Assembly (NCBI GenBank): GCA_029857955.1
Contig: JAOUFY010000001.1
Location: 31,929-95,928, forward strand
DNA from: Spirochaetia bacterium
GTDB lineage: Bacteria; Spirochaetota; Leptospiria; Turneriellales; JAOUFE01
Length of the DNA: 64,000 nucleotides
Direction of reading: 5' to 3'
The notes beneath the pieces were generated by a model. The model worked only from the letters and a program-made list of their open reading frames with translations. It was not told the origin of the DNA and made no database searches. Position 1 is the first letter of the stretch. Each line of letters opens with the position of its first letter. The translations under genes and the position numbers were made by a program. Positions 16,968-17,263 of this stretch are shown piece by piece.

Positions 16968-17011
16968 TTGACAATCTGATTATTCTGATTTTACTGATCA
17001 CACTGAATATG
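16968..17011 (+). promoter_or_regulatory. TTGACA box followed by four 9-bp-phased CTGAT repeats running into the ATG of the AbrB-like gene
   Basis: TTGACA at 16968-16973. CTGAT at 16976, 16985 and 16994, and CTGAAT at 17003. No obvious RBS before the ATG at 17009. Confidence 0.35.
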
Positions 17012-17263
17012 AAAAACATTTGTGAAAGCGATAGCTGCTGGAAAATTGAATCTCTCGTCAATGTGGATGAACGCGGCCAGATGGTGCTGCCGAAAGAACT
17101 CCGCGAAAAAGCCGGCATAAAGGCTGGCGATAAATTGGCTTTGGTAACCTGGGAAAACAACGGAAAAATATGCTGCATCTCTCTGGTAAAATCTGATGAC
17201 CTTCTAGGCATGGTCAAAAAAACGTTGGAACCCATGGTTAGTGACTTAATCGTTGCAACTTGA
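17009..17263 (+). CDS. Cys-rich AbrB/SpoVT/MazE-type looped-hinge-helix DNA-binding protein
   Basis: VDERGQMVLPKELREKAGIKAGDKLALV core. Four Cys (C5, C10 and a vicinal CC in GKICCISL). Stop lies 10 nt before the hgcA ATG. Confidence 0.7.
   Translation: MKNICESDSCWKIESLVNVDERGQMVLPKELREKAGIKAGDKLALVTWENNGKICCISLVKSDDLLGMVKKTLEPMVSDLIVAT

Follow-up and report, generated by a model that had tools for sequence, protein, structure and literature searches.

Among regulators of hgcAB expression, and hence of methylmercury production, the only one tested so far is an ArsR-like protein from one Desulfovibrionaceae strain, P. mercurii ND132, which responds to arsenic and S-adenosylhomocysteine (bioRxiv 10.1101/2022.10.17.512643). 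Zhang et al (2023, ISME Commun, PMC10349881) described a different type of gene, prlF/mazE/abrB-like and 'toxin-antitoxin (TA)-associated', as a putative regulator directly upstream of hgcA; 14 of 35 contigs carried it, as did 8 of 31 confirmed methylators, including six archaea. The NCBIfam model NF040962 names an 'HgcAB-associated protein HgcC' (near_HgcAB). Judging by the model name and the paper, the family belongs with hgcAB, chiefly in archaea, and with toxin-antitoxin systems, and neither source assigns it a function; both the name HgcC and a function for it were absent from the searchable literature, in which subscription journals were not covered. Here we analyze hgcC in a stretch of 64,000 nucleotides from a Spirochaetia bacterium (GenBank assembly GCA_029857955.1, contig JAOUFY010000001.1, positions 31,929 to 95,928 of the forward strand), which we refer to as the window. 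Unlike in those two descriptions, HgcC is found here in many bacterial and archaeal phyla, has arsM as its partner about three times as often as hgcAB, carries an invariant pair of vicinal cysteines, and comes with an operator of its own. Taken as a whole, the evidence leads us to read HgcC as an autoregulated repressor that thiophilic metal(loid)s, for example As(III) or Hg(II), would release from DNA, a reading to which we give a probability of roughly 0.55. We found no mention in the searchable literature of the invariant vicinal cysteines, of a linkage to arsM as well as hgcAB, of an operator common to bacteria and archaea, or of action in trans.

The elements of the locus, in coordinates of the window, are as follows:

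16968–16973, plus strand: -35-like hexamer TTGACA of the hgcC promoter, read from the sequence
16973–17008, plus strand: putative HgcC operator, four 9-bp-phased units with CTGA cores at 16976, 16985, 16994, and 17003
17009–17263, plus strand: hgcC, a cysteine-rich 84-residue protein of AbrB/SpoVT fold (NF040962, PF04014, TIGR01439, AlphaFold2 with Foldseek)
17264–17273, plus strand: 10-nt hgcC–hgcA spacer, GAGGATTTTC, with the hgcA Shine-Dalgarno sequence GAGGA at 17264–17268, read from the sequence
17274–18377, plus strand: hgcA, corrinoid mercury-methylation protein (NF040863, 378.3 bits against a cut-off of 275; cap-helix motif NVWCAAGK)
18374–18667, plus strand: hgcB, ferredoxin with two [4Fe-4S] clusters and a C-terminal vicinal cysteine pair, ...SVCC (NF040864, 108.7 bits against a cut-off of 99)

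The open reading frame (ORF) of hgcC was confirmed, and its product is an 84-residue protein (MKNICESDSCWKIESLVNVDERGQMVLPKELREKAGIKAGDKLALVTWENNGKICCISLVKSDDLLGMVKKTLEPMVSDLIVAT) with cysteines at positions 5, 10, 55, and 56. The start call is sound because the ATG at 17009 is the first canonical start past an in-frame stop at 16949 and the N-terminal residues are kept at the protein level in a genome of the same genus (SDSCWKIESL versus DDSCFRVESM). The TGA stop of hgcC ends at 17263 and the hgcA ATG follows 10 nt on, at 17274, with GAGGA after the stop, in agreement with a preliminary description of this locus that had placed the end of the gene and the hgcA ribosome-binding site there. The hgcA stop and the hgcB start overlap by 4 nt, no terminator was predicted between hgcC and hgcA or inside the operon, and in a same-genus genome (G001) hgcC runs into hgcA, its stop and the hgcA start sharing ATGA. 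The hgcA and hgcB genes beside hgcC are genuine mercury-methylation genes. Cysteine makes up 4.8% of the window HgcC, compared with 0.79% of the long ORFs in its genome, and the chance expectation of a Cys-Cys dipeptide in 84 residues is ~0.005.

The window protein scores 120.5 bits against NF040962 (cut-off 70), matching model positions 1–69 of 70, and is thus a full-length member of the family in its defining place directly before hgcA. By this profile match, the gene is a genuine member of the named but uncharacterized HgcC family and is not itself new. The preliminary description had set the AbrB-type gene against described hgcAB regulation, which it took to involve an ArsR-like regulator and not an AbrB type. 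Such an ArsR-like regulator does exist, but the account was incomplete, given the AbrB-type gene upstream of hgcA in NCBIfam and in PMC10349881; with its existing name and published association with hgcA, the gene is no novel alternative to ArsR.

Profile searches also place the protein in the SpoVT/AbrB superfamily (PF04014, 34.3 bits with a cut-off of 24.7; TIGR01439, looped-hinge-helix, 39.7 bits with a cut-off of 28.3). An AlphaFold2 monomer model (predicted local distance difference test score 78) has strands at residues 18–19 and 25–26, a helix at 29–35, strands at 43–50 and 53–61, and a C-terminal helix at 62–82, with the vicinal cysteines in the last β-strand. Its top Foldseek matches are SpoVT, AbrB-N, and Sso7c4, with a probability of ~1 and E values of ~0.05 for this small domain, so that profiles and model agree with the AbrB/SpoVT fold proposed in the preliminary description. 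By fold and sequence together, the best PDB matches are SpoVT, the AbrB N-domain, the Sulfolobus AbrB-like protein Sso7c4, and MazE, all of them DNA binders; no solved structure of an HgcC family member is among the matches. Common to HgcC and to AbrB, SpoVT, and Sso7c4 (PDB 1YFB, 2W1T, 5ITJ, 2L66) are the swapped-hairpin, looped-hinge-helix N-domain and a conserved Arg/Lys DNA-binding face. In contrast to HgcC with its set of cysteines, these proteins have neither a conserved cysteine cluster nor known metal sensing. In the model, a single C-terminal helix of HgcC appears to replace the C-domains of AbrB and SpoVT, and the predicted targets of HgcC are tandem 9-bp repeats. In addition to the vicinal cysteines, residues D20, R22, G23, Q24, M25, V26, L27, P28, K29, R32, I37, G40, K42, W48, M68, L73, and P75 are invariant in the family. 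Several of these fall in the loop-hinge-helix, the DNA-contacting part of AbrB-type proteins.

The genomic context of hgcC is restricted to two types of methylation gene. A scan of one genome per prokaryotic species returned at least 585 stretches encoding HgcC relatives, in groups that include Methanosarcinales, Methanocellales, Bathyarchaeia, Asgard archaea, Chloroflexota, Nitrospirota, Thermodesulfobacteriota, Aminicenantes, Actinomycetota, and Bacillota, and the nearest 80 loci were kept. Immediately downstream of hgcC lies arsM in 62 of them (NF008823, 340–365 bits, cut-off 263) and hgcA in 16; arsM is 0.9 kb away in one more and hgcA 1.5 kb away in another, and none of the 80 loci has neither gene near hgcC. 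Proteins from the arsM loci score 111–129 bits with the HgcC model, as high as the hgcA-linked proteins. A less biased sample, comprising 301 genomes drawn evenly from the phylum of a Syntrophales metagenome-assembled genome (MAG) described below, holds 50 HgcC copies in 48 genomes, with 16 directly upstream of hgcA and 34 upstream of arsM. Among these 34, 31 are adjacent to arsM, one such arsM being cut by a contig end, and three lie within ~1.2 kb, at one of which hgcC is frameshifted. HgcC is present in 16 of the 91 hgcA-positive genomes of this sample (18%) and in about a third of the 86 arsM-positive ones. Among 41 genomes of the window's class, four have HgcC above the cut-off: hgcC-hgcA-hgcB occurs in three (the window's genome plus one genome from its genus and another from its family) and hgcC-arsM in one that has no hgcA, with no orphan copies in the 41. 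In all, each of the 130 HgcC copies examined is adjacent to or near hgcAB or arsM, and arsM is the partner in 96 of them (about three quarters) and hgcAB in 34 (about a quarter). The enrichment next to hgcAB anticipated in the preliminary description therefore stands as a strict tie to metal(loid)-methylation genes, but most copies precede arsM and not hgcAB. We found nothing in the literature beyond PMC10349881 that pairs arsM with AbrB, MazE, or SpoVT, subscription journals being outside the coverage.

In a tree of the 80 proteins, built on 93 columns and poorly resolved, hgcA-linked and arsM-linked copies are interleaved, with seven changes of partner, at least two of them forced by well-supported branches; two hgcA-linked Syntrophales copies lie inside an arsM-linked clade with 95% support. 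Identity between bacterial and archaeal HgcC is 55–70%. Two seeming exceptions in context were rejected. An apparent HgcC fusion, a 419-residue frame in G290, is a frameshifted hgcC, and the gene next to an apparent orphan copy in G177 is an arsM cut by the contig end. At the former locus (L142:302–1187; G290, contig C7), the arsM frame is broken by one in-frame TGA between its cysteine-rich N-terminal part and the methyltransferase core, downstream of the frameshifted hgcC, and several other arsM matches in the phylum sample contain one in-frame stop (TGA, TAG, or TAA). These genes may encode selenoprotein variants of ArsM or may be pseudogenes. The only ArsM-like methyltransferase gene in the window's genome (G000, contig C137:1497–2045) is below threshold (192 bits, cut-off 263), with neither an HgcC gene nor an operator found next to it.

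Database labels, and PMC10349881, would make HgcC a type II antitoxin of the MazE or PrlF type: PF04014 is named MazE_antitoxin, and many homologues carry the JGI label 'antitoxin PrlF'. We consider this most improbable, as the gene context effectively refutes it. None of the 130 loci has a toxin gene, the partner being hgcA or arsM, and the upstream neighbor in the window is a divergent HdrD-like gene. The NCBIfam equivalog models for antitoxins give only 17–20 bits, against cut-offs of 55–65.

The second line of evidence is an array of short repeats that precedes hgcC. In the window, four units (aaTCTGAtt atTCTGAtt ttaCTGAtc acaCTGAat) come directly after TTGACA, and two bases separate the last of them from the ATG. 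In the 150 nt upstream of hgcC homologues, heptamers such as TCTGATT are ~40-fold enriched (51 of 77 regions, compared with 49 of 3062 background windows), and CTTGACA/TTGACAA is ~30-fold enriched upstream of the homologues. Two or more CWGA cores at an exact 9-bp spacing occur in 57 of 77 upstream regions and 85 of 4296 background windows, and three or more phased units in 25 of 77 and 1 of 4296, respectively, giving a unit consensus of WWTCWGAWW. A position weight matrix (PWM) for the operator was trained on half of the loci, with the 95th percentile of the background (5.8) as the threshold. All 37 held-out loci score above it, with a median of 23.8 compared with -4.1 for the background. Among loci without hgcC, only 2 of 20 with hgcA and 0 of 20 with arsM pass it, with a maximum of 11.3. 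When the PWM was built from bacteria only, nine of ten archaeal loci scored 17–30 and the tenth 11.8, still above the threshold; at archaeal loci, the units flank a TATA-like box. The array in the window is the only chain of three or more phased units in the 64 kb and, at 30.3, the best-scoring site in the 2.86-Mb genome, where the next site elsewhere scores 20.8. No further convincing operator was found in this genome (36% GC), the next-best sites, at ~20, being without a telling neighbor. The related genomes G001 and G003 have three to four units in the same place. By these comparisons, it is hgcC that the 9-bp-phased TCWGA repeats accompany, in bacteria and archaea alike, and not hgcA or arsM alone.

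The conserved predicted operator argues for the DNA-binding regulator that the preliminary description had proposed, and HgcC is probably a sequence-specific autoregulator that acts at the 9-bp repeats. In the window, the array takes up all of the DNA between the -35 box and the start codon, which favors repression by promoter occlusion and would imply a leader that is very short or absent. A precedent for this arrangement is MraZ, an AbrB-superfamily autoregulator that is encoded by the first gene of its operon and binds several evenly spaced short direct repeats upstream. HgcC resembles MraZ in superfamily, in first-gene position, and in its proposed recognition of evenly spaced repeats. MraZ differs in having two fused AbrB-like domains, another repeat with a period of ~10 bp, and no cysteine cluster or link to metals, and the MraZ NCBIfam model gives only 19 bits with the window HgcC.

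Operators also occur away from hgcC. A Syntrophales MAG (JALNVY010000023.1; genome G041, locus L038) has a single HgcC above the cut-off, which heads hgcC-hgcA-hgcB, and a separate arsM 1.8 kb downstream of hgcC-hgcAB, beyond an oppositely oriented gene (L038:7380–7510 region). This arsM has its own promoter (TTGACA-N-TATATT), followed by the units TCTGATTTA TCTGATATA ATTGATTAT, ~77 nt before the arsM ATG. The second operator suggests a trans-acting regulon that would join mercury and arsenic methylation. In a Thermodesulfobacteriota MAG (JBEKWN010000058.1), a second array with a score of 20.2 lies downstream of hgcC-arsM (L062:5316–6822), just before genes for a DUF1326 protein and for PpoB2, a 'copper chaperone' and DUF2182-like membrane protein; this gene pair may be a further member of the regulon. 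Loci without hgcC carry other regulators upstream, with MarR-type genes at 7 of 20 hgcA loci and ArsR-type genes at 2 of 20 hgcA and 6 of 20 arsM loci. Because hgcC-less loci often have such a winged-helix regulator upstream, HgcC would appear to fill the ArsR/MarR regulator slot.

A further possibility is that HgcC acts as a metallochaperone resembling ArsD, with its vicinal cysteines capturing As(III) or Hg(II) and passing them to the Cys-Cys-bearing tails of ArsM or HgcB, and with DNA binding secondary or lost. The cysteine pairs of HgcC do resemble the HgcB C terminus and the N-terminal CC..CC of the linked ArsM proteins, as well as the pairs of ArsD, and 55–70% identity between bacteria and archaea would suit a protein–protein interface. 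A chaperone would not account for the invariance of the DNA-contacting residues of the AbrB fold, for a sequence-specific repeat array that co-occurs with hgcC and is missing at hgcA and arsM loci without it, or for the second operator before a distant arsM. Of the sampled genomes, only 18% of those with hgcA and about 37% of those with arsM contain HgcC, which also indicates that it is dispensable for catalysis. We therefore regard this explanation as distinctly unlikely. ArsD itself is a small protein with several vicinal cysteine pairs, encoded in a metal(loid) operon, that has a thioredoxin-like fold, serves the ArsA pump, and acts as a weak repressor and metallochaperone. Both a thioredoxin-like fold and an ArsA partner are absent at the HgcC locus.

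The signal to which HgcC responds is suggested by its cysteines. A large protein database contains 3138 homologues, and among the best 120 of these, which are 58–83% identical to the window HgcC, C55 is present in 119, C56 in 120, and C10 in 109. Position 11, a tryptophan in the window, is cysteine in 107 of the 120, and most of them have a further Cys-Cys at positions 4–5; an N-terminal cysteine is present in nearly all HgcC homologues. In the 82 locus-derived proteins, the strand pair C55–C56, within the motif W-E-x-x-G-x-[IV]-C-C, is invariant (82/82), and the window member has both residues. The preliminary description had singled out the cysteines as important, and the pair in its GKICCISL segment proves to be invariant across the family. 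An N-terminal vicinal pair before β-1 is typical and not defining, occurring in 52 of 62 arsM-linked and 9 of 20 hgcA-linked copies. As the genomes compared are related and thus non-independent, the apparent difference between arsM-linked and hgcA-linked copies is a lead only. Given that HgcC is a regulator, we put the chance that a thiophilic metal(loid) site provides the signal at even or slightly better, because the invariant Cys-Cys and a cysteine-bearing N-terminal arm are paired exclusively with two enzymes that share only a thiophilic substrate.

The same cysteines could make HgcC a thiol-disulfide or iron-sulfur redox switch. In that case, the operator-binding protein would sense oxidants or O2 by disulfide formation or cluster loss, and the O2-sensitive HgcAB and thiol-dependent ArsM would be expressed only under reducing conditions. 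This proposal fits equally with the evidence from fold and operator, each monomer has four or more cysteines, the hosts are anaerobes according to the titles of their loci, and redox proteins are encoded near hgcC in the window: an HdrD-like CCG protein and a hybrid-cluster-associated disulfide protein. A general redox sensor would not be expected to pair exclusively with two enzymes that have only a thiophilic metal(loid) substrate in common, vicinal disulfides are strained and rare, and the flanking redox genes are not conserved beside hgcC in relatives. On balance, a redox switch seems unlikely.

The HdrD-like gene (14775–16850, minus strand) encodes a 691-residue membrane protein with a 4Fe-4S domain and two CCG domains (HdrD/TfrB-like) and is divergent from hgcC. 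A promoter-like sequence on the minus strand, TTGTCA-18-TAATAT, runs from 16974 to 16945, back-to-back with the hgcC -35 box, and from this arrangement the HgcC operator could also affect the HdrD-like gene. On the other side of the operon, 145 nt past hgcB, a gene on the plus strand (18812–19384) encodes a CcmH-like (PF03918) membrane-anchored protein with a cysteine cluster (ELICVCGCNEPLEYCNHTHC). We treat the HdrD-like and CcmH-like genes as incidental because neither was found beside hgcC-hgcAB in two related genomes. The hybrid-cluster-protein-associated redox disulfide domain protein (TIGR03980, DUF1858; 86 residues) is encoded at 13628–13888 on the plus strand, a few kb upstream of the hgc operon.

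Alternatively, HgcC could be a regulator that responds to a methyl-cycle metabolite, S-adenosylhomocysteine, or to another small molecule, with the cysteines in a structural role. The ArsR-like hgcAB regulator of ND132 responds to S-adenosylhomocysteine besides arsenic, and ArsM depends on S-adenosylmethionine (SAM). We think this very unlikely: an 84-residue protein offers no evident ligand pocket, an invariant Cys-Cys with an N-terminal cysteine cluster is typical of soft-metal sites, and HgcA is a corrinoid enzyme and not a SAM enzyme.

Returning to metal(loid)-responsive repression, we propose that HgcC is a small dimeric, or higher-order, DNA binder of AbrB/SpoVT fold that would repress its own operon, hgcC-hgcA-hgcB, through the array of 9-bp-phased TCWGA repeats. 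Cys55 and Cys56 in the last β-strand, together with cysteines of the N-terminal arm (C5 and C10 here, usually CC...CC), would make up a thiolate site. When a thiophilic metal(loid) binds there, As(III) and/or Hg(II) being the prime candidates, the β-barrel or the arm would be distorted and the protein would leave the DNA, switching on the methylation genes. HgcC would thereby take the regulator slot that elsewhere belongs to ArsR-type or MarR-type proteins upstream of hgcAB or arsM. This model has comparative support from the fold, from the strict linkage to hgcAB or arsM, from the operator that accompanies hgcC, and from the operator at a distant arsM; for a DNA-binding homodimeric barrel as in the superfamily, the support from the conserved operator is indirect. 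What we infer is that HgcC represses and does not activate, which ligand it binds, and how the allosteric release works.

Like ArsR/SmtB proteins, including the ND132 regulator, HgcC is encoded by a small first gene before hgcAB or arsM. A profile search of the window HgcC gave no match to the winged-helix domain PF01022 (HTH_5), and the folds are completely different, so that HgcC is an analogue of ArsR/SmtB in position and proposed logic and not a member of that family. ArsR proteins of the CadC and CgArsR type build their metal sites from cysteines of the N-terminal arm and the core, and the proposed HgcC site is similar in combining arm and core thiolates with a vicinal pair. Going further, HgcC might found a new class of metalloregulator with the AbrB swapped-hairpin fold, sensing As(III), Hg(II), or both through a thiolate site of vicinal cysteines. 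From one conserved 9-bp-repeat operator in bacteria and archaea, such a protein would control arsM as well as hgcAB, perhaps doubling as an ArsD-like hand-off protein. We hold this extension tentatively, at rather less than even odds.

Several observations weigh against metal(loid)-responsive repression by HgcC. A scan of the plus strand with the sigma-70 consensus found no acceptable -10 hexamer before hgcC, and no Shine-Dalgarno sequence was found before hgcC in the window. As neither element is present in canonical form, the hgcC promoter and the transcript start, which is possibly leaderless, are guesses, and the promoter is placed by the perfect TTGACA and by comparison with other loci. 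The window HgcC does not have the N-terminal Cys-Cys pair, containing C10-W11 plus C5, although a single cysteine there is a common variant. Neighboring cysteines in a β-strand face opposite sides, which makes for an awkward chelate unless the strand distorts, and the monomer model is silent on whether the N-terminal and strand cysteines meet. The cysteines could instead serve redox sensing, iron-sulfur binding, or substrate hand-off, and by analogy with the response of the ND132 ArsR protein to S-adenosylhomocysteine, a metabolite may be the signal.

In the sampled phylum, HgcC heads hgcAB in about a fifth of the hgcA-positive genomes and arsM in about a third of the arsM-positive ones. With an operator defined and a cysteine pair invariant, the regulation of mercury and arsenic methylation becomes directly testable, and sequence-based prediction of hgcAB and arsM regulons would also become possible. 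If the ligand proves to be a metal(loid), HgcC would sense metals with a fold for which metal sensing is not known, and would provide a compact part for arsenic or mercury biosensors. The shared regulator supports the idea of a physiological link between mercury and arsenic methylation, and should HgcC indeed represent a new class of metalloregulator, expression of hgcAB would be mechanistically tied to arsenic or soft-metal stress.

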